Virus record (IMG/VR): IMGVR_UViG_3300025771_000029
Coordinates: 1 to 61,105 of that record
Strand: one strand, 5' to 3'
Source of the DNA: a virus
Taxonomy: Duplodnaviria; Caudoviricetes
Length of the DNA stretch: 61,105 nt
Shown: positions 21,414 through 53,002 of the stretch, one piece after another
Position numbering within the stretch: the stretch's first letter is position 1
Layout of the letters: each line of letters starts with the position of its first letter
The notes under the pieces: generated by a model
Database searches by the model: none
Seen by the model: the letters and a program-made list of their open reading frames with translations, nothing else
Told to the model about the DNA's origin: nothing
Position numbers and translations under genes: made by a program

Positions 21414-21590
21414 TTAGCCACTTTTTTTCTGTTTGGGTTGGCGCATGATCCGTACAGTAGGGTCAGCTTCAAATGTTAAACGCACTTGGTTACGGTCAAT
21501 TTTCCCAACTGAAATGACAGCGATCTCTTCATCATTCTTTTGCAGAGTGATTTTATCGTTAGTTTTCTGTGTCAATACCAGTCGCGACAT
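21414..21590 (-). CDS. csrA: CsrA/RsmA-like RNA-binding protein (58 aa, not in the ORF track)
   Basis: MSRLVLTQKTNDKITL...VGKIDRNQVRLTFEADPTVRIMR aligns by eye with CsrA MLILTRRVGETL...GNQVRIGVNAPKEVSVHR. Confidence 0.7.
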   Translation of the reverse strand: MSRLVLTQKTNDKITLQKNDEEIAVISVGKIDRNQVRLTFEADPTVRIMRQPKQKKSG

Positions 21591-30671: not shown

Positions 30672-31045
30672 TTAGGTGCAACGATTTCGATCCACTGGGA
30701 CGTTGCCGACCAGTTGGCATCCAAACGCGAGCAGTTCTTTACGTTTGGCAGGATCTCCTCCTGTAGTTAGTTGCCCAGCACGCTATGGCCCCAGGCTCCC
30801 CCGGCCCCCGGTGTCGCCGGGTTCTCGGGTGTGAAATAAAAAAAACCCCGATGCCAACTAGTGGCACCGGGGTGGAGTGAATTGGTCAGGCTGGAGCGCT
30901 GTGATACTCCTGTAGTTATTGCCATGCCGCCTGTTGCATGGCTCACCAGCTGAACTGCACTGGTTCCTCCTGTGTAGTTGGTGCCAGATCTTTCCCGCCG
31001 GTCACAGCCAGCGGGACAGCGAGGTGTCTGGCGAAACCTCATGGT
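30672..31045 (-). ncRNA. Candidate structured RNA region (three pseudoknots, GGA motifs, internal terminator)
   Basis: Complementary segments identified by eye; no convincing ORF. Confidence 0.45.
30838..30873 (-). terminator. Rho-independent terminator
   Basis: ACCCCGGTGCCA-CTAGT-TGGCATCGGGGT followed by a T run. Confidence 0.85.
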
Positions 31046-32889: not shown

Positions 32890-33158
32890 TGTACCAGCAT
32901 GTACCAGCATGTACCAGCAATGTACCAGTAAAAAAGACAAAAAAGTTAATAAAAACAACTGTGTACCACTTGTACCAGCAAAAGTGAGTTTTACTCGTAG
33001 ATAAAACGTGTTTTTGAAAATCGGGTTATGTGTGAACCCAAAAAAGGTGGTACAAGTGGTACAAGTGGTACAAATGTGTGAAAAAGCAATTAAAACAACA
33101 GGTTACAGCTGTGCCAGAAGTGGTACAGAGCTGGTACAGAGCTGGTACAAGTGGTACA
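32890..33158. repeat. Inverted iteron array, putative replication origin
   Basis: Six TGTACCAS copies (32890-32978) facing seven STGGTACA copies (33047-33158) around AT-rich spacers. Confidence 0.75.
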
Positions 33159-33225
33159 GGCCTAGTCGGCGTCCTTGAACACGTCCAGCGTGAGGAACTG
33201 CCGCCGTGACAGGAGCACGTCTACA

Positions 33226-33295
33226 GGCACCATGTCGCATGCATCATGCTCCACGATCTCTGGTTCATGCACAGGGATGCATGGTTCATGGTCCA
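33226..33295. repeat. Degenerate 7-bp tandem array (TGNNNCA), 10 units
   Basis: ggcacca tgtcgca tgcatca tgctcca cgatctc tggttca tgcacag ggatgca tggttca tggtcca. Confidence 0.75.
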
Positions 33296-33334
33296 GTTGC
33301 AGGTCGAGTTGAGTCGGTATCATGGCAAGTCTCC

Positions 33335-33541
33335 TTATCGGTAAGAGCGACGTTGTTCGGCGTCGAGTTCTGCGTTGAGCTCACGGAGCATCTCCATGGC
33401 GAGATCCCAGTTGCCGTGCTGTGCTTCATGCACCCAGCGACGACGCTTGATGGCACGTAGGACTGGAACGAAGATGAGGTTGGCGAGGAAACGTTCGATG
33501 GCAACGTAGATGTCAATTACGAAAGTGATGAGTTTGAACAT
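33335..33541 (-). CDS. Hypothetical protein, first gene of the minus arm
   Basis: RBS AGGAG, 68 aa. Confidence 0.6.
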   Translation of the reverse strand: MFKLITFVIDIYVAIERFLANLIFVPVLRAIKRRRWVHEAQHGNWDLAMEMLRELNAELDAEQRRSYR

Positions 33542-33801
33542 GTTGTAACTCCTATCAATCGAGCGTCATTGCTCACAAAACAGACCGACCCACGACGACG
33601 AAGGAGGAGGGTTACTGCCAGACAAGGTTCGATGCATGCGTCATGAGACAAGGTTCATGTACCGCGATCCGGGGTTTGGGGTTGGTTGTGCACGGGCAGG
33701 GGAGACAATGAGTGAGTGATTTAGATAAATTTTTTCAAATTTTTTTCTAGCAAAAATTTTTTGCAGCCCTATCTTGTACTGCAAGCGCTGGGGGGCCGTT
33801 T

Positions 33802-34278
33802 GTGGATAAACAGTTGTGTACGCTCTGTAATGAAGAGCTACCAGTCAGTGAGTTCGAACAATACCCAAGCGGAAAATGGCGCATGCAATGTGAACCATGC
33901 CGCATAAAGCATAAGCAGCGTAAACGCCACATGGCTATGCAGCAGTCGCATGAGGCATATATAAGAAACCTGCACACGAAGCTTAAATCCACGCGTAAGA
34001 AAACCCATCTCTGGAACTTGGTTCCTGAAGACTTAATTGATATTTGGGCCGAACAGAAGGGTAAGTGCGCGGTATCGGGCGTTGCGTTGACACATCATCT
34101 GGATGGGTCAGGAGTCAAAGAGTTCAATGCGTCAATTGATCGCATCAACAATGATCAAGGTTATTCGCGAGAGAATGTTCGCTTAGTTGCCTACAGAATC
34201 AACATCATGCGACATACATTATCCACAGATATGTTTTGGTGGTGGGTCAAGACTATCCATGATCACTCTTGTGATTAA
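33802..34278 (+). CDS. HNH-like endonuclease upstream of terminase
   Basis: CxxC zinc motifs; Q.GKCA.SG and SIDRINNDQGYS..NV.LV motifs. Confidence 0.75.
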   Translation: MDKQLCTLCNEELPVSEFEQYPSGKWRMQCEPCRIKHKQRKRHMAMQQSHEAYIRNLHTKLKSTRKKTHLWNLVPEDLIDIWAEQKGKCAVSGVALTHHLDGSGVKEFNASIDRINNDQGYSRENVRLVAYRINIMRHTLSTDMFWWWVKTIHDHSCD

Positions 34279-34279
34279 G

Positions 34280-34296
34280 TATTAGCGCAGGTAATA
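34280..34296 (+). promoter_or_regulatory. Operator/promoter (TTGTGA-17-TAATAT) for the packaging operon
   Basis: TATTAGC-GCA-GGTAATA. Confidence 0.8.
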
Positions 34297-34304
34297 TTAG
34301 AGGC

Positions 34305-34586
34305 ATGTCCGATTACCAGACAGAAGCATACGCAATAGAGGGTCTGGCTGAAGCTGTCATCGGAATTGGACTTCGCGATTCGGGACGACAAGTTTTGGTC
34401 TACGACGCGATAAGTGTGCAAGACATATTGGAAAGCTCGGGTTCGGGACTTTCGTTTGGCGCGTTCTTAGAGGCTTTGAATATAGAGGGTCTCGGTGAGC
34501 GCGCACCTATGTTTATTTGGTTGGATGACGACATCAAATATGAGCTTAAAGCAGTTGGCGCAGGATCAGGCTATCGACTCCATTAG
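34305..34586 (+). CDS. Small hypothetical phage protein
   Basis: GLAEAVIG...VYD...NI.G.GE.AP pattern. Confidence 0.6.
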   Translation: MSDYQTEAYAIEGLAEAVIGIGLRDSGRQVLVYDAISVQDILESSGSGLSFGAFLEALNIEGLGERAPMFIWLDDDIKYELKAVGAGSGYRLH

Positions 34587-35076
34587 TGATCCTGCGGAGT
34601 TAACGCATTCTGAGTTCCAGTCCCACCTACCTTATATGGGCTTGGACTTAAATTCCTTGACGGTGCAGCAAGAGAAGTTAGTCATGCTCGTTGCATCAGG
34701 TATGTCGATTGCAGCTGCTGGAAGAGCAGCGGGTTACTCGCATAGCAACAAAGTTTATGACGCGATGGCACGGCCCGAATGTAAGCGGGCGCTAGAGTAC
34801 TTTCGTGAGCAGGCGCGAGAGAAGGTCAATTTCACGGTGGCTAACGCACACTCTATGTATATGGAGGCGTACTCCGCATCTGCTACCGCGACCGAGATGA
34901 AGAATACGACGGACAGTCTCGTCAAGTTGCATGGGCTGGTGCAGAACGAGCCGCAGACGCAGGTCAACGTGCAGATAAATGCATCGGCTAAGCAGCTGGA
35001 GCGGCTGTCGGACGAAGAGCTGATAAAGCTGGTGGGAAAAGACGAGCACTACTTGGAGCCTGTCGTTGGAGGTTGA
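34540..35076 (+). CDS. terS: Terminase small subunit
   Basis: LTVQQEK...AAGRAAGYS HTH, KLHGL; directly upstream of TerL. Confidence 0.75.
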   Translation: MSLKQLAQDQAIDSISDPAELTHSEFQSHLPYMGLDLNSLTVQQEKLVMLVASGMSIAAAGRAAGYSHSNKVYDAMARPECKRALEYFREQAREKVNFTVANAHSMYMEAYSASATATEMKNTTDSLVKLHGLVQNEPQTQVNVQINASAKQLERLSDEELIKLVGKDEHYLEPVVGG

Positions 35077-36721
35077 AAAACGAGAATGCAGCGTCTGCAG
35101 AACGTTTCAGCCTGAGACGCTGTTCGCAAGCTCTGAAAGTAACGACTGTGTGTATTGCGTAGCTAAGCAGCAAGAGGCTCTTCCTGCTGCGAAAGAGAAA
35201 GAGGAAGAAGAGCCGCCCAAGGAGGAGATGAGCCTTGAAGATAAAGCTAAAGCAGAACTGGCGCTACGCATCCTTACTAGAAAGCGTCTGCTCCCGTTTG
35301 TCGAACGCTTTAACCCCGATTACAGCGCTGGCTGGGTCCATAAAGACATCTGTCGTCGGCTGGAGCAGTTCAGTCGCGACGTGGCTGAAAAGAAAAGTCC
35401 AAGACTTATGCTCTTTATGCCGCCTCGACACGGCAAGAGTACGCTTGCGTCGATTGCGTTCCCGGCTTGGCATCTGGGTCGACACCCTGACCACGAATTT
35501 ATTTCTTGCTCGTACTCAGGTTCGCTTGCGATGGGCTTCAGTCGTAAGGTCCGTTCGCTACTACGTGATCCTTCCTATAAAACAGCGTTTAAGACGCGCC
35601 TTGATCCAGATTCGCAAAGCGCGGAAGCGTGGCTTACTACCGGTGGCGGCGGGTATGTTGCTGCTGGTGTTGGCGGCGGTATTACTGGTAAGGGAGCTCA
35701 TGTTCTCGTCATCGACGATCCAGTAAAGAACCGTGAAGATGCTGAAAGCCAGAATAATCGCGAAGCTAACTGGGACTGGTACACGTCGACTGCTTATACG
35801 CGTCTCGCTCCTGGTGGTGGCGTACTTGTCATTCTCACTCGCTGGCATGATGACGATCTTGCTGGAAAGCTCCTTCGAGCGGGTTCCGAAGGTGGTGATG
35901 AGTGGACCGTTGTTAAGTACCCCGCAATTGCCGAAGAAGACGAAGAGTTCCGCACCACTGGAGATGCACTACACCCAGAGCGGTATGACGTAGAGGCGCT
36001 GCAGCGTATTCAGCGCGCAGTTGGCCCAAGAGATTGGTCGGCGCTGTACCAGCAGAACCCGGTTGCAGACGATGGTGATTACTTCTCACGAAGCATGATC
36101 CAGTACTACGACTCAGACGACATAGATTTGGATCGGATGAAGTTCTACTGCGCGTGGGACTTGGCGATTGGTAAGAAGGATCGTAACGACTACTCGGTTG
36201 GCATGGTGGTCGGCATCGATGAGATGGAACATATATATGTTGTAGATGTAGTGAGAGGGCGGTTCGACGGCTTTGAGTTGGTCGAGCAGATTCTCGACAT
36301 GTACGAGCTGTGGCGTCCGTCCATTGTGGGTATTGAGAAGGGTCACATTGAGATGGCGCTAGGGCCGTTCCTAGAGAAGCGGGTCAGAGAGCGCGGTTTA
36401 TATGAAGCGTATTTCAAAGATCTGAAAACAGGTAGGCGGGATAAGGAGGCGCGGGCCAGAGCCATCCAAGGACGTATGCAGCAGGGCATGGTGCACTTTC
36501 CGCGCAATGAGATATTTACCGGGCCGTTGGTTGCAGAGTTGCTGCGTTTCCCCAACGGGGTGCATGACGATCAGGTTGATGCGTTGGCATGGCTCGGTCT
36601 CATGATGACGGAATTTGCGGTCTTTACCGCGCCAGTAATTAGAGAGCCATCTTGGAGAGACCGGCTTGACTACTTAGTGAAAGGATCTGCGACTAGGTCA
36701 CGATCCGCGATGAGTGCTTGA
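35066..36721 (+). CDS. terL: Terminase large subunit
   Basis: MPPRHGKS, IDDP, TRWH.DDL, LYQQ.P, WDLA and HDDQVDA motifs. Confidence 0.95.
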   Translation: MEVEKRECSVCRTFQPETLFASSESNDCVYCVAKQQEALPAAKEKEEEEPPKEEMSLEDKAKAELALRILTRKRLLPFVERFNPDYSAGWVHKDICRRLEQFSRDVAEKKSPRLMLFMPPRHGKSTLASIAFPAWHLGRHPDHEFISCSYSGSLAMGFSRKVRSLLRDPSYKTAFKTRLDPDSQSAEAWLTTGGGGYVAAGVGGGITGKGAHVLVIDDPVKNREDAESQNNREANWDWYTSTAYTRLAPGGGVLVILTRWHDDDLAGKLLRAGSEGGDEWTVVKYPAIAEEDEEFRTTGDALHPERYDVEALQRIQRAVGPRDWSALYQQNPVADDGDYFSRSMIQYYDSDDIDLDRMKFYCAWDLAIGKKDRNDYSVGMVVGIDEMEHIYVVDVVRGRFDGFELVEQILDMYELWRPSIVGIEKGHIEMALGPFLEKRVRERGLYEAYFKDLKTGRRDKEARARAIQGRMQQGMVHFPRNEIFTGPLVAELLRFPNGVHDDQVDALAWLGLMMTEFAVFTAPVIREPSWRDRLDYLVKGSATRSRSAMSA

Positions 36722-36722
36722 T

Positions 36723-38885
36723 ATGGCTACCTATAAAGCTGTGGAGAAGATGACACCCGCCGAACAGCAGGAGGTCTCGTCTAAACAGTGGGATCGTTAC
36801 GTTCGCGCCCGTGATAACGGCCACCTTGAATACGTTGAGATGGCTAAGAAGTGCGATGCCTTCTATCGCGGGGACCAGTGGGATGAGTCGGATGTAGCTG
36901 CACTAGATGCAGAGGGTCGGCCCGCTTTGACTATTAATACGGTGCTGCCGACTGTAAACACGGTGCTTGGCGAACAGTCCACGCGGCGTGCAGATGTGCA
37001 GTTCAAACCGCGCCGTGGCGGCGACGAAGCGGTCGCGCACACGCTGACAAAGTTGTACATGCAGATCGCTGACAACAACAAGCTCGACTGGGTTGAGCAG
37101 CAGGTCTTCAGCGACGGTTTGATCCTAGACGGGCGCGGCTACTTCGACGTTCGTATTGATTTCAGCGACCACGTCGAAGGTGAGATCCGCATCACCGCCA
37201 AAGATCCGCTCGACATTCTTATTGATCCCGACGCCAAAGAGTCTGACCCCAAGACGTGGAACGAAGTCTTCGAAACGAAGTGGATGACGCTGGATGAGAT
37301 CGAAGAACTCTACGGTAAGAAGAAAGCGGAAGAGCTGCGTTTCATCGCCGAGAACGGTAACGGCTACGGGCGGGATTCAATTGAGTACGAGGAGAATCGC
37401 TATGGCGATCTCGATAGTACTGACGATTATCTAGGGGCTGGTATTCCCGGCGACGATGAATATCGCAACGTGCGGGCGCTTCGGGTCATCGAAAGACAGC
37501 ACAAACGAATGACCCGTGTGATGTGCTTCGTGGACCCTGAAACAGGCGACACGAGAGATGTACCAGAACCATGGTCCGAGGCAAAGGCCAAGAAGTTTGC
37601 CAAGCAGTACAGCTTAAACCTAATCCGAAAAGTTAAACGAAAAGTCCGATGGACAGTGACATGCGACAAAATAGTACTTCATGACGACTGGTCTCCTTAT
37701 AACGATTTTACCATTGTGCCTTACTTTGCTTATTTTAGGCGCGGTAGACCTTTCGGTATGGTGCGTAACCTCCTTTCGCCGCAGGAACAGCTAAACAAAA
37801 TAGCCAGCCAAGAGCTGCATATCGTTAATACCACAGCTAATAGTGGCTGGATGGTAGAAAGCGGATCGCTGGTGGGTATGTCAGCCGATGACTTGGAAGA
37901 GCACGGCGCTGAGACCGGTCTGGTACTTGAGTACAACCGTGGCTCTACACCGCCCGTGAAGATACAGCCAAACCAGATCCCTACTGGTCTGGATCGTATC
38001 AGCCAGAAAGCGGCGCTAAATATTAAAGCTATTAGTGGTATCAACGATTCGATGTTGGGCACCGACAGTGCCGAGGTATCGGGCGTTGCTATTCAGGCCA
38101 AGCAGAACCGTGGCGCGATAATGATCCAAGTGCCGCTGGACAACCTGCGTAAGACTCGACAGTACCTCGCCGAGAAGATTTTAGACTTGGTGCAGACGTT
38201 CTACACAGAGCGGCGCGTCATCATGATCACCAACGAAGAAGACCCGCTTAAACCACGCGAGCCGATGGTCATCAACGAGATGACACCCGAAGGGCAGATC
38301 ATTAATGACCTGACTATCGGTGAGTACGACGTAGTTATCTCCACCGCGCCCGCGCGCGACTCGTTTGATGAGGTGCAGTTTGCCGAGGCGCTTAACTTGC
38401 GTCAGGTTGGGGTCGCCATCCCAGACGACGCCATTATTGAATACTCGCATCTGGCGAGAAAGCAGGAGCTTGCGAAGCGCATCCGTGTACTCACCGGTCA
38501 GGAACCACCGACACCGGAGCAGGCGGAAGTTATGGCGATGCAGCAGCAGATGGCTATGCAGCAGTTGCAGCTTGAGATTGCCAAGCTCGAAGCGGAAGTC
38601 CGTAAGTTGCAGTCCGACGCGGCGGTCAACATCGCCAAGGTACAGGATATGACTGACGTACAGCCGCAGCTGCGCCTCACCGAGCTGCAAAGTCAGATTG
38701 ACACCAAGATGGAAGAACTCCAGTTGCGTCGTGATCTGGCGGATCTTACGAATCAGACGCGTCAGTCCCAGGCGGAGACTAATGCTGCAACACGAATCGC
38801 TGCAACGGCGATGCAGACCGCTGCTAAGAAGCAGTCTGCAAGGCCGGGGCCGGTAAACATCCCTAACTCGCCTAACAATCAATAG
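36723..38885 (+). CDS. Portal protein (P22/N4-like)
   Basis: FY.GDQW, RPALTIN, PQ...NK..S and YDVV motifs; C-terminal coiled-coil. Confidence 0.9.
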   Translation: MATYKAVEKMTPAEQQEVSSKQWDRYVRARDNGHLEYVEMAKKCDAFYRGDQWDESDVAALDAEGRPALTINTVLPTVNTVLGEQSTRRADVQFKPRRGGDEAVAHTLTKLYMQIADNNKLDWVEQQVFSDGLILDGRGYFDVRIDFSDHVEGEIRITAKDPLDILIDPDAKESDPKTWNEVFETKWMTLDEIEELYGKKKAEELRFIAENGNGYGRDSIEYEENRYGDLDSTDDYLGAGIPGDDEYRNVRALRVIERQHKRMTRVMCFVDPETGDTRDVPEPWSEAKAKKFAKQYSLNLIRKVKRKVRWTVTCDKIVLHDDWSPYNDFTIVPYFAYFRRGRPFGMVRNLLSPQEQLNKIASQELHIVNTTANSGWMVESGSLVGMSADDLEEHGAETGLVLEYNRGSTPPVKIQPNQIPTGLDRISQKAALNIKAISGINDSMLGTDSAEVSGVAIQAKQNRGAIMIQVPLDNLRKTRQYLAEKILDLVQTFYTERRVIMITNEEDPLKPREPMVINEMTPEGQIINDLTIGEYDVVISTAPARDSFDEVQFAEALNLRQVGVAIPDDAIIEYSHLARKQELAKRIRVLTGQEPPTPEQAEVMAMQQQMAMQQLQLEIAKLEAEVRKLQSDAAVNIAKVQDMTDVQPQLRLTELQSQIDTKMEELQLRRDLADLTNQTRQSQAETNAATRIAATAMQTAAKKQSARPGPVNIPNSPNNQ

Positions 38886-38896
38886 GAGATTGCAAA

Positions 38897-39910
38897 ATGG
38901 CTAAGAAAGAAACCCCTGAAGAGCAGTTTGATACGGTATTTGACGTAATGCCCGGTGCAGAGCGCGATACTGAAGAAGTCGAAGCAGTAGATATGAACTT
39001 TGGGCTGGGCGAAGAGGAGCCAGAACCCGAAGAACCCGAAACCGAGGAGCAGGAGGAGCCGGTTGCGGAGGCTGAAACGCCTGAAGAAGAGCAGGAGGAA
39101 GAGGAGGTAGTTGCCGAAGAGACCGAAGAACCGGTCGCAGAGGCTGAATCTGAGCCAGAACCCGAGCCAGAACCCGAGAAAAAAGAGCACATGGTCCCTA
39201 AATCTCGGCTGGACGAGGTGTTGCAGAAGCAGAAAGCCCTGCAAAAGCAGTTGGAGGACATGAAAAAAGCGCAGGAACCCCCTGCAAACGCGCCTGATCC
39301 TTACGATTTTGACTCAAAAGAGCGCGAGTACATGAATTTGGTGCTCGATGGCAAGGAAGCAGACGCGGTCAAGCTCCGCCAAGAGATCCGAAACGCCGAA
39401 AAAGCGCAGCTTGAGTTCGATATGAACGAAAAAATGCAGCAGACCGTGCAGCACAACGCACAAGCTACAGCGTTACAAGCGGCTGCAAACGAGTTAGAGG
39501 CGCAGTTTCCGGTATTTGACCAGAATTCTGAGGCTTATAACGAGGGTTACACGCAGGAAGTCATCGGTTTGCGTGACGCGTTCATCATGCAGGGCTACGA
39601 CGCGGTAGATGCGTTGACTAAAGCGGCAAATTTCGTCATTAAAACAAACGATTTGGCCGCTCCAGAGCCTACAAGTAGCACTTTGGATGCACGAACTGCG
39701 CCGAAACAGAAGCCTGTGGACGAAGTTGCAAAAAAGCGGGCTGAAGTGAGCAAAAAACTGAAGGCTGCAGAGTCACAGCCGCCCGAATTACCCGGTGAGA
39801 GTTCTGCCGCGCGGGGCGAAAGGGCCGTGGACGTATCCACCATGTCTGAGGACGAGTTTAACGCTCTGCCAGACGCCACAATCAAACGATTACGAGGGGA
39901 TATTTTGTAA
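38897..39910 (+). CDS. Capsid scaffolding protein
   Basis: Acidic N-terminus, VPKSRLDEV, C-terminal MSEDEF.ALP...RLRGD; lies between portal and capsid. Confidence 0.8.
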   Translation: MAKKETPEEQFDTVFDVMPGAERDTEEVEAVDMNFGLGEEEPEPEEPETEEQEEPVAEAETPEEEQEEEEVVAEETEEPVAEAESEPEPEPEPEKKEHMVPKSRLDEVLQKQKALQKQLEDMKKAQEPPANAPDPYDFDSKEREYMNLVLDGKEADAVKLRQEIRNAEKAQLEFDMNEKMQQTVQHNAQATALQAAANELEAQFPVFDQNSEAYNEGYTQEVIGLRDAFIMQGYDAVDALTKAANFVIKTNDLAAPEPTSSTLDARTAPKQKPVDEVAKKRAEVSKKLKAAESQPPELPGESSAARGERAVDVSTMSEDEFNALPDATIKRLRGDIL

Positions 39911-40221
39911 TGGCTGAGAAAAAAGACTCCCGGCTCGCGAGGGCGGGTGTGTCTGGGTACAACAAACCCAAACGCACTCCGTCTCATCCCACTAAGTCAC
40001 ACATTGTTGTGGCTAAGTGTGGTGGCAAGGTCAAAACCATACGTTTTGGTCAGCAGGGGGTCAAAACCAACCAGACGGTTGGGCAGCGCAAGGCGTTTAA
40101 GTCGCGCCACGCTAAGAACATAGCCAAAGGTTGCCTTTCAGCGGCTTACTGGGCTGACAAGGTGAAGTGGTCGCCCAGTAAGACGAAGTCGTCATCAACC
40201 AAGTGGAAGAAAGGGAGTTAG
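39910..40221 (+). CDS. Highly basic phage protein
   Basis: GYNKPKRTP.HP.KSH, RFGQQG, F..RH and AAYWA.K.KW motifs. Confidence 0.7.
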   Translation: MAEKKDSRLARAGVSGYNKPKRTPSHPTKSHIVVAKCGGKVKTIRFGQQGVKTNQTVGQRKAFKSRHAKNIAKGCLSAAYWADKVKWSPSKTKSSSTKWKKGS

Positions 40222-40223
40222 TT

Positions 40224-40313
40224 ATGCACGACGGAAAACCATGCAGCGCAAAGCGCGGCAAGAAGAAAGCCTCGACTAAGAAGAAAGCGAAGGCTAAAAA
40301 AACGGCAAAGTAG
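40224..40313 (+). CDS. Lys-rich micro-protein (29 aa, not in the ORF track)
   Basis: MHDGKPCSAKRGKKKASTKKKAKAKKTAK; RBS GGGAG. Confidence 0.5.
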   Translation: MHDGKPCSAKRGKKKASTKKKAKAKKTAK

Positions 40314-40322
40314 CGTTAGGTC

Positions 40323-40351
40323 TTGCGCTTAAATATTACCGGCGCTAATAT
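40323..40351 (+). promoter_or_regulatory. Capsid promoter TTGCGC-17-TAATAT with operator at 40334-40350
   Basis: TATTACC-GGC-GCTAATA overlaps the spacer and the -10 box. Confidence 0.8.
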
Positions 40352-40357
40352 ATAGTT

Positions 40358-40564
40358 AAGATTCGTATGCCTAAACGATAGAAGGCCGTGTCGTACACGT
40401 TAAAACCGACCTCCGCCTGCACAGGCGTTAAACCTGCCGAGGTCGCGCCTCGCTAATAAGCGCTAGTTCGTCGCCTCACGATACGGGGAAACGGATTAGC
40501 CGCTCCATAAGTCGGCTATGAGTGGGCGTATGCCCGTCGTATTTATCGCAAAAGGAGGCCTATC
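40358..40564 (+). ncRNA. Structured capsid 5' leader with tandem pseudoknots
   Basis: Five adjacent S1/S2 units with compensatory differences (see findings). Confidence 0.6.
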
Positions 40565-41710
40565 ATGGCTTTAACTAATTTTGCGGCGCTGACTACTGAA
40601 CAGTTAACAGCATGGAGCCGCGATTTTTGGCGTGTTGCTCGCAACGCATCTTTCATTAACCAGTTCGCCGGTAGTGGCTCTAACGCCATGGTCCAGCGAG
40701 TCACTGAACTCACCAAGTCTGAGAAGGGCACCCGCGCTGTATTGACCTTGCTCGCCGACATGACCGGAGACGGTATCACTGGTGACAACACTCTGGAAGG
40801 TAATGAAGAAGCTCTCAGAAGCTACGACATTACTATTCAGCTTGATCAGCTGCGTTTCGCGAACCGAATCGCTGGCCGACTGGCTGACCAGAAGTCTGTC
40901 GTCAACTTCCGTGAGACCTCTCGCGACATGCTGGCGTATGCCATGGCTGACCGCATGGACCAGCTAGGGTTCTTGACGCTGTCTGGTGTTGCTTACACGC
41001 ACAAGACGAATGGTGGTCTGCGCCCCACTTCAGCATCCGCTGGGCATGAGTTGGTAGACCTAGAGTACGCGTCTGATGTATCTGCGCCTACTGCTAATCG
41101 TCACCGCCGTATTTCAGGTAACGACATCGTTGCTGGAGATACCACGGCTGTAACGGCTACCGACAAGCTGGGCTATCGCCACATTGTAGAGTTGAAGGCT
41201 TACGCCAAAGACAACTACATCCGTGGTCTGCGAGGTCAGGGCAATCAGGAGCTGTTCCACCTGTTTGTCACTCCGCAGCAGATGGCTAACTTGAAGCTTG
41301 ACGCTGACTTCCTCGCTAACGTTCGTAACGCTGGCGTTCGTGGTCCTAACAACGAGCTGTTCTCAGGCTCTGCTTCACTGATGGTTGATGGTGTGATGGT
41401 CCATGAGTTCCGCCACGTCTTCTCAACCGAAGGTGCGACGACCGGTACTTCCGGTAACGCTGGTGCCGCTGGCTATAAGTGGGGTGCTGACGCTGACGTA
41501 GTTGGTGCACGCGCGCTGTTCTGTGGTGCTCAAGCGCTCGCCATGGCTGACATCGGTCTCCCAGAGATCGTAGAAGATACTTTCGATTACGAGAACCAAG
41601 CTGGTATCTCAATCGGCAAGATCTTCGGCCTGCGTAAGCCTAAGTACAACAGCGACTACAACGGCTCTGTTGAAGACTTCGGAGTTATCTGTCTCGACAC
41701 TGCTCAGTAA
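40565..41710 (+). CDS. Major capsid protein (N4-gp56/DUF4043-like)
   Basis: ELTKS.KG, GD.TLEGNEE.L and I..DQLR.A motifs; strong RBS; terminator downstream. Confidence 0.9.
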   Translation: MALTNFAALTTEQLTAWSRDFWRVARNASFINQFAGSGSNAMVQRVTELTKSEKGTRAVLTLLADMTGDGITGDNTLEGNEEALRSYDITIQLDQLRFANRIAGRLADQKSVVNFRETSRDMLAYAMADRMDQLGFLTLSGVAYTHKTNGGLRPTSASAGHELVDLEYASDVSAPTANRHRRISGNDIVAGDTTAVTATDKLGYRHIVELKAYAKDNYIRGLRGQGNQELFHLFVTPQQMANLKLDADFLANVRNAGVRGPNNELFSGSASLMVDGVMVHEFRHVFSTEGATTGTSGNAGAAGYKWGADADVVGARALFCGAQALAMADIGLPEIVEDTFDYENQAGISIGKIFGLRKPKYNSDYNGSVEDFGVICLDTAQ

Positions 41711-41718
41711 ACCTGATC

Positions 41719-41742
41719 ACCCCCTCTTCGGAGGGGGTTTTT
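41719..41742 (+). terminator. Rho-independent terminator after the capsid gene
   Basis: ACCCCCTC-TTCG-GAGGGGGT-TTTT. Confidence 0.9.
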
Positions 41743-41755
41743 CTTTAAGGATTAA

Positions 41756-42118
41756 GTGATGAAAGTGATTTCCGACAAAGATTTACGAGTGACGACGCTA
41801 GGTGGTACGGCGGTGTTACTCCAAGCCGGGGTTCCACGAGAACTCGGAGACGACATAGGCCTGAAGGCCATAACCATGGGTGCAAGACGTGCAGATGAGC
41901 CTTTAGTCACCCATGAAGTCGTGATCGATGAACCATTAATCACGAAGGATGAAGAGGAAGCATTAGTCGGAGTCATGAATGATCTGATCGATTCAGCTGA
42001 CCCTGACAACTTTAAATCAGACGGCACTCCGAAAGCGGCTGTCGTAAATAAAGCAGCCGGTAGGACAGTCCCACCGGAAGAGCGCGAACAGGCTTGGGAA
42101 CAAGCGCTTAATTCTTAA
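41756..42118 (+). CDS. Hypothetical virion-associated protein
   Basis: 120 aa after the capsid gene; F..DG.PK...V motif. Confidence 0.6.
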   Translation: MMKVISDKDLRVTTLGGTAVLLQAGVPRELGDDIGLKAITMGARRADEPLVTHEVVIDEPLITKDEEEALVGVMNDLIDSADPDNFKSDGTPKAAVVNKAAGRTVPPEEREQAWEQALNS

Positions 42119-42130
42119 CGAGGAAAGATA

Positions 42131-42844
42131 ATGGCCGTTTCAGTAGCAAGTGTTATCGATAGAGTTCAAGTTACCTTGCAGGATACAACTGGTATCCGGT
42201 GGCCCGAAACGTCCGAGCTCATTCTTTGGGTGAACGACGCGCAGCGTGAAATAGCGCTGCTAAAGCCCGACGCATCTGCCACTAATGACACGATTACGCT
42301 TGTCACTGGAACAAAGCAGTCGATCCCAAGCGCGGGGAACCGGCTGTTGCGCGTGGTACGTAACATGTCTGCTGCGAGCGGGGGTACTGGAAAGCGTTCT
42401 ATTCGGTTAGTTTCGCGCGAGATTCTTGATGCTCAGACACCTGATTGGCACGACCCGACTGTATCAGGCGATGCAGCACATGGATCTGTCGTCAAACACT
42501 ACATGTACGACGAGCAAGACCCACGTAATTTTTATGTGTACCCCGGCGTAAGTGGGAGTGCTTATATAGAAATTGTCTATTCTGCTAATCCAACTACTGT
42601 CACCGCAAGCGACAATCTGTCTATCCCAGATATTTATGCCAATGCGGTTATGAACTACGTGCTGTATATGGCTTACATGAAGGACGCGGAATACGCAGGT
42701 AACAGCCAGCGTGCCGCGAATCATTTCCAGCTATTTACAGCGTCTGTAACAGGCAAAGCGCAGGTTGATCTCATCACAACGCCGAACGCCGAGTCACGTT
42801 CAAATCCTAATCTGACTGCCGGTGGGCAGATGATGGCTCAGTAA
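42131..42844 (+). CDS. Head-tail adaptor protein
   Basis: LQD....RW...EL..WVNDAQREI...KPD; FYVYP. Confidence 0.7.
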   Translation: MAVSVASVIDRVQVTLQDTTGIRWPETSELILWVNDAQREIALLKPDASATNDTITLVTGTKQSIPSAGNRLLRVVRNMSAASGGTGKRSIRLVSREILDAQTPDWHDPTVSGDAAHGSVVKHYMYDEQDPRNFYVYPGVSGSAYIEIVYSANPTTVTASDNLSIPDIYANAVMNYVLYMAYMKDAEYAGNSQRAANHFQLFTASVTGKAQVDLITTPNAESRSNPNLTAGGQMMAQ

Positions 42845-43534
42845 ATGGCGATACTTTACGAATCGTTACTCCCCGAGGTCATCCCTATGGTGCCGGGGTG
42901 CCCCGATACGCTAATCGAAAGCAATATTCGAGCGGCGGTGATAGAGCTGTGTGAAAAGGCGGGGGTATATCAGGCTGAACTTGACCCAGTGACTACTGTA
43001 GCGGGGCTGTACGAGTACGACCTTGAACCCCCCGCGAACACGGTAGTAGAAAAGGTTCTGTGGGTAGTACACAAGGGCAAGGATCTAGAGCCGATATCTA
43101 CTGGTCTCTTGGAGCAACGTAAACCCAGCTGGCGGGATGCGGATAAGCGCGGCGAGCCCGAGTATTTCGTGAAGCCCTCGCAGGCGCTGTTTTGGCTAGT
43201 GCCTGTCCCAGACGAAACCATTGTATCTAGCACTGTGCTCCGTGTGCAGCTGAAGCCAACGCATACTTCGACAGCATGCGAAAACGAGATCATGGACGAC
43301 TACCGAGACACCATTATCAATGGAGCGCTGTTCCGTTTGCTTCGTCTGCCAAGCAAAGAGTGGACGGACTACGCGGGCGCGCAGGTGTACGGCAGTTTGT
43401 TCCAGCAAGGCATCAAAGATGCTGAAACAAAAGCGCGACATGGCGACATGCCTATCGCAAGGAAGGTCCGGTACGGAGGAGTTCACCGGTCCTATGGTCT
43501 TTCTAGGAAGAAGTATGGACGAGAAATCGCGTGA
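42845..43534 (+). CDS. Adaptor/tail tubular protein
   Basis: VPGCP...IR.A.IE.C; I..GAL.RL...P.K.W. Confidence 0.6.
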   Translation: MAILYESLLPEVIPMVPGCPDTLIESNIRAAVIELCEKAGVYQAELDPVTTVAGLYEYDLEPPANTVVEKVLWVVHKGKDLEPISTGLLEQRKPSWRDADKRGEPEYFVKPSQALFWLVPVPDETIVSSTVLRVQLKPTHTSTACENEIMDDYRDTIINGALFRLLRLPSKEWTDYAGAQVYGSLFQQGIKDAETKARHGDMPIARKVRYGGVHRSYGLSRKKYGREIA

Positions 43535-43943
43535 CCCAGTTATTGCAGATATTCGCGAGCATTGGGGTTGGGTTAGGCCGGGGCTTGAAGAGATTCTTAA
43601 TGAAGATCCCTTTATTGATGTCATCCCCGAAGACGTTTTTACGGCATGCAAAACAGAGTCTGCACATCTGTGGGTTACAGATGATGGGTTTGTGGTAACG
43701 ACGGGGTTGACTGACCCTTACAGCGGTAAACGAACATTGCTGATTTGGTTCGCTTGGGCAAAAAAGAAAGGCATGAACATAGCGGCACAGTGCGTAGGGT
43801 TTTTTGAGCAAGTTGCTTACGACGCGGGTTTTAGTTCTATCGAAGTAAGAACCCGCCACGAGCAACTAGGTGAGTACATAGAACAGTCTGTTGGTTGGGA
43901 AAAAGAGACAGTTGTCTACAGAAGAGATTTGAGAAATGGGTAG
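43515..43943 (+). CDS. Putative GNAT-like head/tail assembly protein
   Basis: W.WV.PGL...LLIW.AW pattern; precedes the ejection proteins; start at MDEKSR. Confidence 0.45.
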   Translation: MDEKSRDPVIADIREHWGWVRPGLEEILNEDPFIDVIPEDVFTACKTESAHLWVTDDGFVVTTGLTDPYSGKRTLLIWFAWAKKKGMNIAAQCVGFFEQVAYDAGFSSIEVRTRHEQLGEYIEQSVGWEKETVVYRRDLRNG

Positions 43944-44571
43944 TACACCAAGTCAATCCGATTACAAACCAAGCGAAGCTGACAAGGCGAACGCATCGGT
44001 TGCCATGGCTGAGTATCGGTTCTTCAAGCAGAACTATGACCCACTTCTGCAGCAGATGCGCGACAAGTCTATGAACGAGGACTTTTCAGCAACGCTGCGG
44101 GGCCGTGCTAATGCCGACACGATGCAAGCGTTAACGCCGTCTGGCTACAGAAGTACCCAGATGAGTGATTTACCTAGCGATATAAACACGGCGTTGCAAG
44201 GACAGCTGCAAGGAGCCAGCGCCGCCGGTAAAGAGATCCAGAATACGATGCAGACTAACGTACTTGGTACAGCGCGCGGACAGGCTGCGGACGCACAAAC
44301 AGGCATGGCGCAAGCAGCGCGGTTAGGCACATCTGAAGCGCTTGCTAGAGCGCAAGCTAAGCAGACCGAAAAAGACGCGTTGTACGGAGCCGCTGCCCAA
44401 TTAATTACATCTGCTGCGCTGCAGGGCTTTGACAATATGCAGACGAGCGGCACAAAAGTAAATATGGGTCCGTCTACCAAGGTTCAGGGCTCGTTCTTCA
44501 CGCCAGTTGATAAGCAAGGCAAGCCGATCACAGGGTTTAAAAACAGGTTCACTTACGGGACGGGTGGCTAA
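43936..44571 (+). CDS. Internal virion/ejection protein
   Basis: Ala/Gln/Gly-rich helical protein in podovirus synteny. Confidence 0.55.
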   Translation: MGSTPSQSDYKPSEADKANASVAMAEYRFFKQNYDPLLQQMRDKSMNEDFSATLRGRANADTMQALTPSGYRSTQMSDLPSDINTALQGQLQGASAAGKEIQNTMQTNVLGTARGQAADAQTGMAQAARLGTSEALARAQAKQTEKDALYGAAAQLITSAALQGFDNMQTSGTKVNMGPSTKVQGSFFTPVDKQGKPITGFKNRFTYGTGG

Positions 44572-45317
44572 TGATTAGTTTAGGCAATCTAGGCAATATA
44601 GATGCTGCGCGCGTAAGAGCGATTCAAGACTCATACATGACGGGCGCTGTAGATCCAGAGGATGGGGGGATTGGTGCTGGCGCTGCTGGGGTAACTGGGA
44701 CTACTGCCGGAACGACCGCAGGCGCCGCAACAGGCGGCGGGACAGGGTATACCGGCCCACGCGGTGGATACCCCGGTATTTACAACACCGGCAATAATCT
44801 GCCAGCTGTTTCTGATCCCGACAAGGCTTACGCTGATCTGACTCGGCAAGAGTATCTCGACTACATCACGAACTACCGTGATTTTGAGCTTGACCTGATT
44901 AATAAAGCGACGACGGACACGAGCCTGATTGATCAAGCGAGAGAGGACCGCGAGAAAGCTTCGGCGCTTACTGCAGGCATGGCTGAACGAAATCGTAGTC
45001 GGTACGGGGCGGCGTTGACACCCGTGCAGCAACAGCAGCAGGACCGGCGGCTGCAGTTAGGTAACACCCTGGGGGGTATACAGGCGGTGAGCGACGCCAA
45101 AATTGCTCAGCGAGAGTCGAATACGCGGCTGTTGTCTGACTTGATAAATATCGGGCAGGGCGTAAACCGCTCCAGTCAGCAGCAGCTTGCGACATCTGCT
45201 GCTAACAAGGTGCAGTTAGATAACGCATACCGTCAGGCCAAAGCGAATTCCCGAGCACAAACCTACAGCACCCTAGGCACTTTGGGCGCTATGGCAATTT
45301 TTGCGTTCGCGTTTTAA
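44571..45317 (+). CDS. Internal virion/ejection protein
   Basis: Gly-rich N-terminus, helical body, hydrophobic C-terminus. Confidence 0.55.
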   Translation: MISLGNLGNIDAARVRAIQDSYMTGAVDPEDGGIGAGAAGVTGTTAGTTAGAATGGGTGYTGPRGGYPGIYNTGNNLPAVSDPDKAYADLTRQEYLDYITNYRDFELDLINKATTDTSLIDQAREDREKASALTAGMAERNRSRYGAALTPVQQQQQDRRLQLGNTLGGIQAVSDAKIAQRESNTRLLSDLINIGQGVNRSSQQQLATSAANKVQLDNAYRQAKANSRAQTYSTLGTLGAMAIFAFAF

Positions 45318-45324
45318 GGGGTAA

Positions 45325-47409
45325 GTGATGTCAATTGCTGAAGGGGCTACCAGCGCGATTTCTATGTTTCAAGCTATGCAGAGAAACCGCATGGCTAGGG
45401 ACGAGCTTGAGTATCAGCGGCAGCAGGATGCGATAAATCGTGCGGATCGGCTAGCAGAATCACGGGCGCTTGCTGAATATCGGAGAGATATTTTAGATGG
45501 GCAAGAAGCAACGAGGGCGTTAGCAGAAAGACAATACGACGAAGCAGCTCCGTTTCGGGCACAAAACTTACGTAAAACAACGGCTGAAGCTGACCGCGCA
45601 GAGGTACAGGCCAGATCTGAACTGCTTACACACGATACCCGAGTAAACACGGATCTGATTGACGGGTGGACTAGTCAGAACCTTATAAATCCTAATGATT
45701 GGACTCTGCTAGACAAGCGTAGGCTAGCGGAAGGTATTCGAAATGGAGACAAGACCTCTACAGATTTAATACTTAGTCAAGCAAGTAGTCAGCTAGACCT
45801 ACCAACAGGTTCGACGGCTGTTGGGTTAGATCGACTACCGAATGGGAATTACGTCGTCAGAGTGAAGAATAGTGATGGGTCTCCAGGGGTTGTTACTGGC
45901 CCTGATGGTAGCAGTGACCCTAATGCTAAACCGGCTCAGTTTACTGCGGAGCAGTTAGCAGGCTTAGCTGAAGTGGGTTACCAGCTCGGTACGCTCGCAG
46001 CGAGCAAATATGACCCTATGCTGCTTCGCCAGTTACAAAATAAAATAGGCTTAGATGCGGATGCCGCTGAAATAGATGCCGCACTTAGCTCTGCTGCTTA
46101 CGGAAGTCAGGTGGTAAAAAGTTTGCCAGCCGAGGCGCAACGATCCGCTATGAGTGTGATCGCTGCTGCTGAGACGGTCGAAGAGCGCGCCGAAGTGATA
46201 GATGCGATAGCACAAGATGCCGGTATGCCGCCACAAGCGCAGGCTTTGTTAGAGCAGCGCAGACAGGCGCAAGAAAAAGGGAAGCTGGGCGGCAATCGGG
46301 AACGTACTACGGCAAGAATTGCTGAAATCGATGCAGAACTCGCTGAGCTTGGTTTTAACAGCAGTGGTGCTCGCACGGAGGCGGCGAATCTTGTTGCCGC
46401 CACAGAAAGTGCGTCTGCAGAAGAGCTAAGTCAGGCCATTCAAAGCGGGCAACTCAAAGTCACGCCAGAGGTCACTAAATTAACTGCGGATATGCTCCGT
46501 GGCAAAGGTATCGAAGAACTCCAGCAGCTCAAACGGCTCAACAACACTGAGCGCTCTTTAGCTATTGCGGTTATGGCGGCTTCGACAACAGATCCAGCAA
46601 CTCAGCGCGCTTTGTTAGACAACATAGATAACATCATGGAAACCGGCTCACCGTCCATGAGCCGGAAGGATAGTATTAGTGCCAGACAGACTGATGAGCA
46701 GATAACCCAAGCCGAGGAAAGGCTCGCTCAGTCGGAAGCGCGGTTACGGATTGATATGGCTAAATTTAGGCGCGAACTTTCGAAAGACGGTCAGGCTAGA
46801 ACTGATGGAATGGTTGAAGGCCTGCAAGAAATAAGAAAAACGACCGAAACTATGTTTTTCGATGAAAACGGAAAGTTCAGAGACCCGTGGTCCGGTTCTG
46901 CACCCATAGCAGACAAGTGGGCAAAAACAGTTTTGCCTGACCTTCAAGCACAGCTATCGAAGATAGAATTAGGTAGAGATGGACAGCCCATAAACCCTGA
47001 TCAAATAGCAGAATATCAAGCGCTGCGGGCCGCAATAACGCAAGGCGTTGGTCTGTCATTAGCCGCCTACGCAAATAATTTTGATTGGTTTACGTCTATT
47101 GGGGTTCTTCCGGTCCCAAATCTTGGCGACATATTGAATCTTAGAGGCTGGTTGCCGTTTGATCGCGGAGAAGCTGATCAGTCTGCGGTTTCCACTGATT
47201 TTATAGGCGACCGTATCGAATTGGTTACGGCAGACGGTAGCATCAATGGCCGACCTAAAACATTTTATTACCTCGACGTTAGGGGAAATCGTACAGACCG
47301 AGGCGTAGATGCAAGTGAAATAGAAGCAAATCTCGGGAAAGAAATGTATACCTGGATGGTAGACGCTGGGAGACGCCGGTTATCACGGATTGCAGAAGAG
47401 GGTAAGTAA
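45325..47409 (+). CDS. Internal virion/ejection protein
   Basis: 694 aa helical/coiled-coil protein. Confidence 0.55.
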   Translation: MMSIAEGATSAISMFQAMQRNRMARDELEYQRQQDAINRADRLAESRALAEYRRDILDGQEATRALAERQYDEAAPFRAQNLRKTTAEADRAEVQARSELLTHDTRVNTDLIDGWTSQNLINPNDWTLLDKRRLAEGIRNGDKTSTDLILSQASSQLDLPTGSTAVGLDRLPNGNYVVRVKNSDGSPGVVTGPDGSSDPNAKPAQFTAEQLAGLAEVGYQLGTLAASKYDPMLLRQLQNKIGLDADAAEIDAALSSAAYGSQVVKSLPAEAQRSAMSVIAAAETVEERAEVIDAIAQDAGMPPQAQALLEQRRQAQEKGKLGGNRERTTARIAEIDAELAELGFNSSGARTEAANLVAATESASAEELSQAIQSGQLKVTPEVTKLTADMLRGKGIEELQQLKRLNNTERSLAIAVMAASTTDPATQRALLDNIDNIMETGSPSMSRKDSISARQTDEQITQAEERLAQSEARLRIDMAKFRRELSKDGQARTDGMVEGLQEIRKTTETMFFDENGKFRDPWSGSAPIADKWAKTVLPDLQAQLSKIELGRDGQPINPDQIAEYQALRAAITQGVGLSLAAYANNFDWFTSIGVLPVPNLGDILNLRGWLPFDRGEADQSAVSTDFIGDRIELVTADGSINGRPKTFYYLDVRGNRTDRGVDASEIEANLGKEMYTWMVDAGRRRLSRIAEEGK

Positions 47410-52992: not shown

Positions 52993-53002
52993 GGGGAAGG
53001 TC

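Follow-up and report, generated by a model that had tools for sequence, protein, structure and literature searches.

A conserved array of predicted tandem pseudoknots in the major capsid leader of uncultured aquatic podoviruses

Introduction

Pseudoknots in phage leaders are known singly, as in T4 gene 32, where a 5' pseudoknot and an A/U-rich operator place translation under autogenous control by gp32. Knots in tandem have been described at the 3' ends of plant viruses and in transfer-messenger RNA (tmRNA). The 5' stem-loop of ompA is a 5'-terminal mRNA stabiliser, and the put RNA of HK022 acts on the transcribing host polymerase. Here we describe an RNA element in the leader of the major capsid gene of an uncultured tailed virus (Duplodnaviria; Caudoviricetes; IMG/VR record IMGVR_UViG_3300025771_000029). 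The window, meaning the whole stretch of DNA that was analysed, is the complete 61,105-bp record, and the element is an array of five back-to-back hairpin/pseudoknot units at 40363-40488, between the capsid promoter and the ATG. Comparison with homologous leaders supports reading it as tandem H-type pseudoknots that form a structured RNA located in cis, both conserved and covarying.

Published work on roadblock RNAs and on nuclease scanning provides a second point of reference. According to two studies, coremin (xrRNA-C, an exonuclease-resistant RNA of beny-, cucumo- and other RNA viruses) blocks both Xrn1 and scanning ribosomes (Dilweg et al. 2019, PMC6546385; 2023, PMC10520033). Its motif, GUCCGAAGACGUUAAACUAC, opens with a hairpin of 3-4 bp whose loop is YGAD and whose closing pair is C-G; a conserved spacer of about 10 nt and a second hairpin come next, and a pseudoknot between loop and spacer is suspected (PMC6546385, PMC10520033). 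In two further papers RNase E is described as scanning from the 5' end to locate its sites and as being slowed by obstacles (PMC9943677, PMC11194081). A survey of structured RNAs in IMG/VR reports 8,495 candidates, five of them upstream of the capsid domain PHA00201 (PMC10690425).

Results

Architecture of the capsid leader

The units of the array are of two types. Type I, represented by units 1 and 5, has the form UCGU..ACGAUA with a short third loop, while type II, represented by units 2-4, consists of a G+C hairpin, a U-N-AAA spacer and 2-4 bp that join the loop to the end of the spacer. Re-reading the sequence placed every stem listed in the original prediction, which had been made from the letters of the window alone, where that prediction had put it, together with the two hairpins that it had set before the ribosome-binding site (H6, TAGCCG/CGGCTA; H7, GGGC/GCCC).

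The original prediction had regarded single units as marginal and their repetition as the evidence; one sequence is indeed marginal on its own, and the test was made by comparison. Strict Watson-Crick units tile the stretch 40358-40520 four times; dinucleotide shuffles give 1.36 +/- 0.90, and 4 of 300 shuffles reach four. Nested folding of the single sequence gives -86 kcal/mol (z -1.71), matched by 12 of 200 shuffles; since the knots are not nested, this unremarkable minimum free energy is uninformative. RNAalifold, a program unable to represent knots, chose one helix per unit.

Conservation and covariation among homologous leaders

A scan of viral contigs with the capsid protein found at least 592 relatives in one collection, the best 80 of which (82-99% identical) were kept. 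A pattern scan added 80 listed loci; 66 carry the element by the covariance model R1, and the remaining 14, chance matches in coding DNA, were dropped. A capsid query with an intermediate locus, L291 (76% identical), brought in a sister clade termed family C, and R1 matches 81 of its 82 sources. Identical leaders were counted once, and L301, which lacks upstream DNA, was left out of the search. Within the window R1 has a single match of 183.5 bits, the next best scoring 12.1 bits, and nothing rises above noise at 30672-31045 on the minus strand. A capsid homologue begins 41-63 nt past the element in 62 of the 66 pattern-derived loci, the other four lying at contig ends. In two sub-clades the element is present in every leader examined.

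The original prediction had called for a comparison of homologous capsid leaders, and both conservation and covariation were found in three alignments. A1 holds 51 distinct leaders aligned by MAFFT, loci with <235 nt upstream being excluded. A5 holds 80 distinct leaders aligned by covariance model, which favours the six helices contained in that model; the knot-only helices (stem 1 of units 1 and 5, stem 2 of units 2-4) lie outside it. A7 holds 55 distinct family C leaders aligned by MAFFT only, blind to structure, with L335 excluded for its cut 5' end. A further alignment, A3, omits five leaders with variant 3' halves (L023, L034, L066, L067 and L079), all of which are kept in A1 and A5.

Paired cells make up 92.7% of A1, against 85.3% when shuffled (none of 500 shuffles reaches the observed value) and 30-42% when partners are slid, with two-sided change at 23 of 50 pairs. 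The corresponding values are 95.2%, 86.1%, 29-43% and 27 of 46 pairs for A5, and 93.5%, 83.6%, 28-39% and 28 of 43 pairs for A7. G.U and U.G cells together number 68 and A.C and C.A cells 27, an excess that fits an RNA transcribed from the plus strand. This pattern and the compensatory changes disfavour a repeat at the DNA level.

Support for individual units

The original prediction spoke of five covarying pseudoknots; this stands for both stems of units 1, 3 and 4 and for stem 2 of unit 5, was overstated for unit 2, and does not extend to stem 1 of unit 5, which hardly varies. Stem 2 of unit 1 shows two-sided change at all five pairs and is 97-98% paired across A1, A5 and A7; the innermost pair of its stem 1 is C-G in 29 and U-A in 21 family C leaders and near-invariant elsewhere. 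For unit 3, stem 1 covaries by exchange of C-G and U-A in 16 of 80 leaders (A5) and at three of four pairs in A7, and stem 2, which is outside the search model, covaries at three of three pairs in A5 and at three of four in family C, where it is 93% paired. Stem 1 of unit 4 (CGAGG/CCTCG, as predicted) has three covarying pairs and is 100% paired in A5. The conserved register of its stem 2 is CGC 40444-46 with GCG 40460-62 rather than the predicted GCG/CGC; this helix is near-invariant in the window's family (A5) and appears in family C as UCGU/ACGA, UCAU/AUGA or UCGC/GCGA, with two of four pairs covarying and 97.7% of cells paired (A7). By the usual comparative standard units 1, 3 and 4 thus qualify as pseudoknots, both helices of each covarying.

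Unit 5 is very probably a pseudoknot as well, judged by the same comparison. Its stem 2, which in the window (CCTC/GGGG) includes one U.G pair, covaries at four of four pairs and is 97.8% paired in A5; in stem 1 complementarity is kept, with 92% paired and one compensated sequence in A5 and no variation in A7. Unit 2 is a firm hairpin, with stem 1 100% paired and covarying at two of four pairs in A5 and at four of four in family C (A7), and its pseudoknot is plausible, if weakly tested. The second stem is an invariant CG/CG, for which one lineage (L376) carries GCAGU/ACUGU instead. The predicted TCG/CGA pairing is present in the window, but its third pair, T40391-A40409, is unpaired in 53 of the 59 relatives with letters there.

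Between unit 5 and H6 the single-stranded ACGG has its A and both G invariant and its C nearly so in A3, and is wholly invariant in A7. H6 is 98.7% paired with two-sided change at five of six pairs (A5; four of five in family C, A7), and its loop begins with CUCC in most leaders; variants of this loop are found without matching changes at the ribosome-binding site. One leader (L288, 1277-1466) carries an extra hairpin of about 25 nt within the H6 loop (..CTCCAAATATATTAGCAAAGCTAATGTATAAGTCGG..), which indicates that this loop tolerates insertion. H7 varies in sequence and is not a constant part of the element.

A lone type II-like unit (CGTG..CACG, TTAAAA, GATC/GATC) whose first stem is that of unit 2 was also noted at 52939-52963 (+) in the window, in the last 50 nt of an 1860-aa gene and directly 5' of the next gene.

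Genomic setting and transcription unit

The capsid protein, whose nearest named relatives are those of the Pseudomonas phages KPP25 and phiR18 (54.5% identity), is encoded between a promoter with leader and an intrinsic terminator (Table 1), which together make a self-contained promoter-leader-gene-terminator unit. A consensus promoter scan did not list the capsid promoter among its sites. TTG and TAATAT-like hexamers are retained 5' of the element in 81 relatives, with a perfect TTGACA in some, and the spacer and -10 of the window's promoter form a palindrome (ATATTA..TAATAT). From the promoter position the capsid transcript is predicted to start at about 40358-40360. The array sets in 7-12 nt past the -10 hexamer in 81 relatives, and if transcription is assumed to start 6-8 nt past that hexamer, the predicted 5' overhang before unit 1 would be 0-5 nt. 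Of 51 unique relatives, 36 have a strong terminator-like site no more than 90 nt from the capsid stop. Upstream, a gap of 250 nt separates the 29-codon frame from the capsid gene. That frame may be the split C-terminus of the 103-aa gene; in many relatives, too, the gene ending before the capsid promoter has a Lys/Arg-rich tail.

Table 1. Features of the capsid leader and its neighbourhood in the window (S1, stem 1; S2, stem 2; L3, loop 3)
Feature	Position	Strand	Details
P22-type portal gene	36714-38885		
337-aa gene	38897-39910		candidate scaffold under the protein-operator alternative
103-aa gene	39910-40221		
29-codon reading frame	40225-40314	+	lysine-rich; immediately 5' of the capsid promoter
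Sigma-70-like promoter	40323-40351	+	TTGCGC, 17 nt, TAATAT; from sequence; conserved in relatives
Unit 1, type I pseudoknot	40363-40386	+	S1 40363-66/40375-78 (UCGU/ACGA); S2 40369-73/40382-86, with GCCU 40369-72/AGGC 40383-86; L3 UAG
Unit 2, type II	40387-40409	+	S1 40387-90/40396-99 (CGUG/CACG); loop UCGUA; spacer UUAAAAC; proposed S2 C40392 G40393/C40407 G40408
Unit 3, type II pseudoknot	40414-40437	+	S1 40414-18/40423-27 (CGCCU/AGGCG); S2 40419-21/40435-37 (GCA/UGC); spacer UUAAACC
Unit 4, type II pseudoknot	40438-40462	+	S1 40438-42/40448-52; S2 40444-46/40460-62; spacer CUAAUAA
Unit 5, type I pseudoknot (very probable)	40468-40488	+	S1 40468-71/40478-81 (UCGU/ACGA); S2 40474-77/40485-88; L3 UAC
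Single-stranded ACGG	40491-40494	+	between unit 5 and H6; no partner found
Hairpin H6	40497-40518	+	UAGCCG/CGGCUA; loop begins CUCC (40503-06), complement of the ribosome-binding site core
Hairpin H7	40524-40535	+	GGGC/GCCC
Ribosome-binding site and capsid start	40554-40567	+	GGAGG (40554-58), ATG (40565)
Major capsid protein gene	40565-41710	+	381 aa; phrog_334 major head protein, E 1e-80; Pfam Phage_capsid_3, E 9.8e-43
Intrinsic terminator	41719-41745	+	8-bp stem with 6 G-C pairs, then TTTTCTTT; ends the capsid transcription unit
SU10-type adaptor gene	3' of the major capsid gene		

Promoter-like sites of the form TTGnnn-17-TAATAT occur three times in the window, at 34269-34297 (+), 40323-40351 (+) and 23951-23923 (-), and all three carry an inverted repeat, ATATTAsC .. 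GsTAATAT, across spacer and -10. From their sequence they look like a phage-specific promoter/operator class for the packaging operon, the capsid gene and the replication operon. The sites at 34269-34297 and 23951-23923 are followed by short leaders only and lack the array.

The arrangement of promoters and terminators bears on the idea that the leader modifies RNA polymerase as the HK022 put RNA does, the nascent transcript making the host enzyme resist pausing and termination along the long structural operon. The array does lie directly 3' of a host-type promoter, a scan of 33000-52999 listed no plus-strand promoter-like site, and a strong terminator stands right after the capsid gene. However, two promoters of the same type head long operons without an array, the conserved post-capsid terminator (36 of 51) better fits a short abundant message than read-through, and the likeness to put is limited to position. 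A role of this kind appears very unlikely.

RNA-library contigs were taken from 4 of 24 listed metatranscriptome runs, uncovered parts and differences in depth being left unused. The leader is covered in all four runs and joined to the capsid frame in three of them (X1, 40379-41057; X2, 40396-41682; X6, 40322-41788), which is a weak hint given that DNA carry-over is possible. These contigs can be set against a further alternative, in which the leader is a separate small RNA of about 180 nt that ends at H7 and works in trans, for instance by soaking up a nuclease or RNA-binding protein of the host, with the capsid message arising by read-through. All 62 unique spacers of the window's family have a hairpin at the H7 position, and behind it 26 of the 62 show a T-rich run (5 or more T in 8); in the single run X8, at low depth, one contig ends at 40540 and the next begins at 40567. 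Contigs nevertheless cross H7 into the capsid frame in three of four runs, the window's own H7 is a weak stem of 4-6 bp, and family C keeps the array yet lacks H7 (0 of 38 spacers, which are short and 76% A+T). A trans-acting small RNA is accordingly given little weight and seems scarcely more than a marginal prospect.

Wider distribution and absence from catalogues

The named phages nearest by capsid, KPP25, phiA008 and AP1 (45-55% identical), have leaders of 160-200 nt as read by eye, in which R1 finds no match. A query with the KPP25 capsid recovered 80 loci 61-74% identical to it, here termed family B, whose capsid is about 50% identical to that of the window. Their leaders likewise lie behind a promoter of TTGACA type and combine the two unit types of the window: a type I knot whose loop contains CGAYA, a type II unit of the form GGAG..CGAC..CUCC-UAAAAA-GUCG, and a third knot. 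In an alignment of 20 family B leaders (A2) 85.9% of cells are paired, against 77.5% when shuffled and 25-44% when slid. The 64 distinct family B leaders average 1.59 strict units, and shuffles and capsid coding DNA 0.34 each, with the proviso that the sequences are related and p-values therefore overstate. In family B1 the GUCG strand can pair equally well with the CGAC of the loop or with a 3' CGAC.

R1 gave one weak match (L099, 13 bits) in 83 family B sources, and the homology of the window's family with family B is drawn from shared unit types and from intermediates (L291, L293-L297), not from a score. Among these intermediates, unit 3 of L291 has the CGAC/GUCG pairing of family B, and L296 has CGUC/GAUG. 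On L293, an isolate scaffold of 1,543,451 bp from Motiliproteus coralliicola C34, a capsid homologue (57% identical) is preceded by the same promoter type and a leader with three type I UCGU..ACGACAC knots (about 1230-1500); this gammaproteobacterium, which can be cultivated, thus probably harbours a prophage or a phage-like region there.

Capsid relatives also sit in metagenome-assembled genomes (MAGs) labelled as seven phyla, one an archaeon. The near-identical phage contigs L286-L298 (capsid 74-85% identical) are filed within MAGs labelled as a Poseidoniales archaeon, Dehalococcoidales, Verrucomicrobiales, Neomarinimicrobiota and Gammaproteobacteria. Such labels were read as binning noise and rejected as host evidence, mis-binning of phage contigs being the simplest explanation.

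The original prediction had not recognised the element as a named RNA family, and a scan with Rfam 15 agrees. For window positions 39800-41000, with E values up to 10, the best score was 17.7 bits against a gathering score of 47, and the families were unrelated; fifteen related loci gave no matches at the gathering score, and the family B leader, again at E values up to 10, gave nothing relevant. DNA similarity searches of 50,697 phage records with the leader, the window element and the family B leader returned no match, and at blastn sensitivity no cultured phage among these records carries the element. No such leader came to light in the searchable literature; it may be listed among the 10,006 candidates of a 2023 catalogue of viral RNAs (PMC10690425).

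The Rfam result, which yielded no match even at E values up to 10, also counts against ligand sensing, by a riboswitch or otherwise, in which H7 or the CUCC loop would serve as expression platform. The unpaired letters of the leader are highly conserved, as a sensor would lead one to expect, and an alternative pairing of CUCC with the ribosome-binding site is possible. Yet a build from repeated modules does not resemble one ligand pocket, a terminator-like platform is not kept (H7 is absent from family C, 0 of 38, and terminator-like in just 26 of 62 of the window's family), variants of the CUCC loop go uncompensated, and a late structural gene offers no metabolic logic. We regard ligand sensing as the least probable of the explanations considered; it, the small RNA and the polymerase modifier are all less likely than a nuclease roadblock or a protein operator.

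Discussion

The comparative analysis points to a well-supported structure at the start of the capsid message, an array of five knots that is widespread and absent from Rfam and from the searchable literature. Its carriers are a large group of uncultured aquatic podoviruses, the element being retained with matching base changes across hundreds of environmental relatives.

The main rival to the function favoured below is a translational operator, in which the array would form a multivalent platform for a phage protein (the capsid protein, a scaffold encoded at 38897-39910, the 103-aa protein encoded at 39910-40221, or another) or for host S1 or Hfq, and so set capsid translation. Invariant letters within a covarying frame (UCGU/ACGAUA twice, the CG..CG clamps, the U-N-AAA spacers, ACGG and the CUCC loop) are what such a platform might display, the units are repeated, the H6 CUCC loop could pair with the GGAG of the ribosome-binding site, and T4 gene 32, where gp32 acts on its own leader, offers a precedent. 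The invariant letters could also be explained by base triples within the knots, however, variants of the H6 loop are uncompensated at the ribosome-binding site, and the downstream product is a capsid protein with no known RNA-binding activity. We consider the operator unlikely on present evidence, while noting that, if correct, it would point to an unknown layer of capsid dosage control.

A role for phage CsrA, raised in the original prediction, found no support. The leader has one GGA besides the ribosome-binding site, and relatives often have GGG or GGT there; with GGA motifs scarce and not kept, CsrA was rejected as the leader's partner. A CsrA homologue is encoded in the window, a 58-aa frame at 21414-21590 (-) matching Pfam CsrA (33.3 bits, cut-off 27, E 4.7e-8).

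Among leaders and knot arrays already described, T4 gene 32 resembles the capsid leader in opening with an H-type pseudoknot that is followed by UUAAA/UAAA-like elements and the ribosome-binding site. It differs in having one knot rather than five, and its A/U tracts are single-stranded gp32 sites, whereas the A-rich tracts of the capsid leader lie between G+C stems and are apparently knot loops; the gene downstream is that of the capsid. The upstream pseudoknot domain at the 3' end of tobacco mosaic virus and tmRNA both contain several head-to-tail H-type pseudoknots, likely stacked into a rod. These belong to the 3' untranslated region of an RNA virus and to a stable non-coding RNA, respectively, have other partners and show no sequence likeness to the array. 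The candidates of the IMG/VR survey (PMC10690425) come from the same data source, are the same kind of object and lie directly 5' of phage genes; PHA00201 is a different capsid family, and the text of that survey does not mention a tandem-pseudoknot capsid leader.

Of the three functions offered in the original prediction, capsid/scaffold feedback, nuclease protection and ligand sensing, we favour nuclease protection, on account of the predicted 5'-terminal position, the promoter-to-terminator unit and the likeness of units 2-4 to coremin. Our working interpretation, held tentatively and with a little less than even confidence, is that the leader acts as a 5'-terminal roadblock stabilising the capsid mRNA. 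Beginning nearly at its 5' nucleotide, the RNA would fold into a row of five compact H-type pseudoknots, with the CUCC-loop hairpin and the ribosome-binding site after them, and the array would bury the 5' end. It would then present a series of directional roadblocks to 5'-end-dependent decay by RNase E, or by RNase J in hosts having it, and could give the most heavily needed late message a long life and high-level translation. Scanning by RNase E from the 5' end and its slowing by obstacles fit an array that is predicted to lie 5'-terminally, occurs before capsid genes only and is paired with a strong terminator at the 3' end of the unit. Known 5'-terminal stabilisers place a structure at or near the 5' end, where the array is predicted to lie, and so shield the downstream message from 5'-end-dependent decay. 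Should the directional roadblock prove real, viral xrRNAs would have a bacterial counterpart in the array, which would lend itself naturally to testing the RNase E scanning model and could serve in expression constructs as a compact modular 5' stabiliser.

The published rules for coremin allow a closer comparison. The first hairpin of coremin has 3-5 bp with a pyrimidine-purine loop-closing pair (PMC6546385) and a YGAD or YGNNAD loop; the spacer is conserved, of 8-10 nt and UUAAACUAC-like, with the second hairpin directly 3'. Pentaloops mostly failed (PMC10520033), and a G-C closing pair abolished Xrn1 resistance. Units 2-4 resemble this description in their layout of a hairpin, a (U)UAAA(C) spacer, a predicted loop-spacer contact and a hairpin directly after. 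U-N-AAA is invariant or nearly so in units 2-4; the AAA of the spacer, invariant in the phage leaders, is essential in coremin, and the second spacer position is variable in both. The resemblance extends to units 3 and 4 together, where a 10-nt spacer (UUAAACCUGC) is followed at once by the unit 4 hairpin: the phage reads ..AGGCGUUAAACCUGC and hairpin, coremin ..GACGUUAAACUAC and hairpin, with CGUUAAAC in common. Units 2 and 4 have longer spacers, of 14-15 nt. Only unit 3 has the pyrimidine-purine closing pair (U40418-A40423) that coremin, as described, requires.

Several observations weigh against the roadblock. The letters of type I stem 1, of the loops and of the spacers are far more constant than a structural roadblock requires, and this excess could mark a protein-binding site. 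The X6 contig extends 36 nt upstream of the predicted start and on into a relative's upstream gene, which implies read-through transcripts or the presence of DNA. Known 5' stabilisers are single hairpins or bound proteins, which five knots exceed. The phage loops (UCGUA, GCAC and UCGCG; NCGNN in relatives) depart from the coremin loop rule, and the closing pairs of units 2 (G40390-C40396) and 4 (G40442-C40448) depart from its closing-pair rule. Because the loops and two closing pairs break these rules, units 2-4 are classed as working like coremin rather than as members of that family. The phage element differs further in its place in the 5' leader of a DNA phage, in its tandem arrangement and in being flanked by another knot type, and to our knowledge Xrn1 is absent from bacteria.

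A bolder proposal, which we put forward as a doubtful possibility, is that bacterial phages carry exonuclease-resistant RNAs of their own. By analogy, the tandem array of coremin-like and H-type units would form, where the capsid message begins, a mechanical barrier that works in one direction, stopping RNase E scanning or RNase J as xrRNAs of eukaryotic viruses stop Xrn1. In that event DNA phages and plant RNA viruses would owe their shared hairpin-UUAAAC-hairpin core to common descent or to striking convergence.

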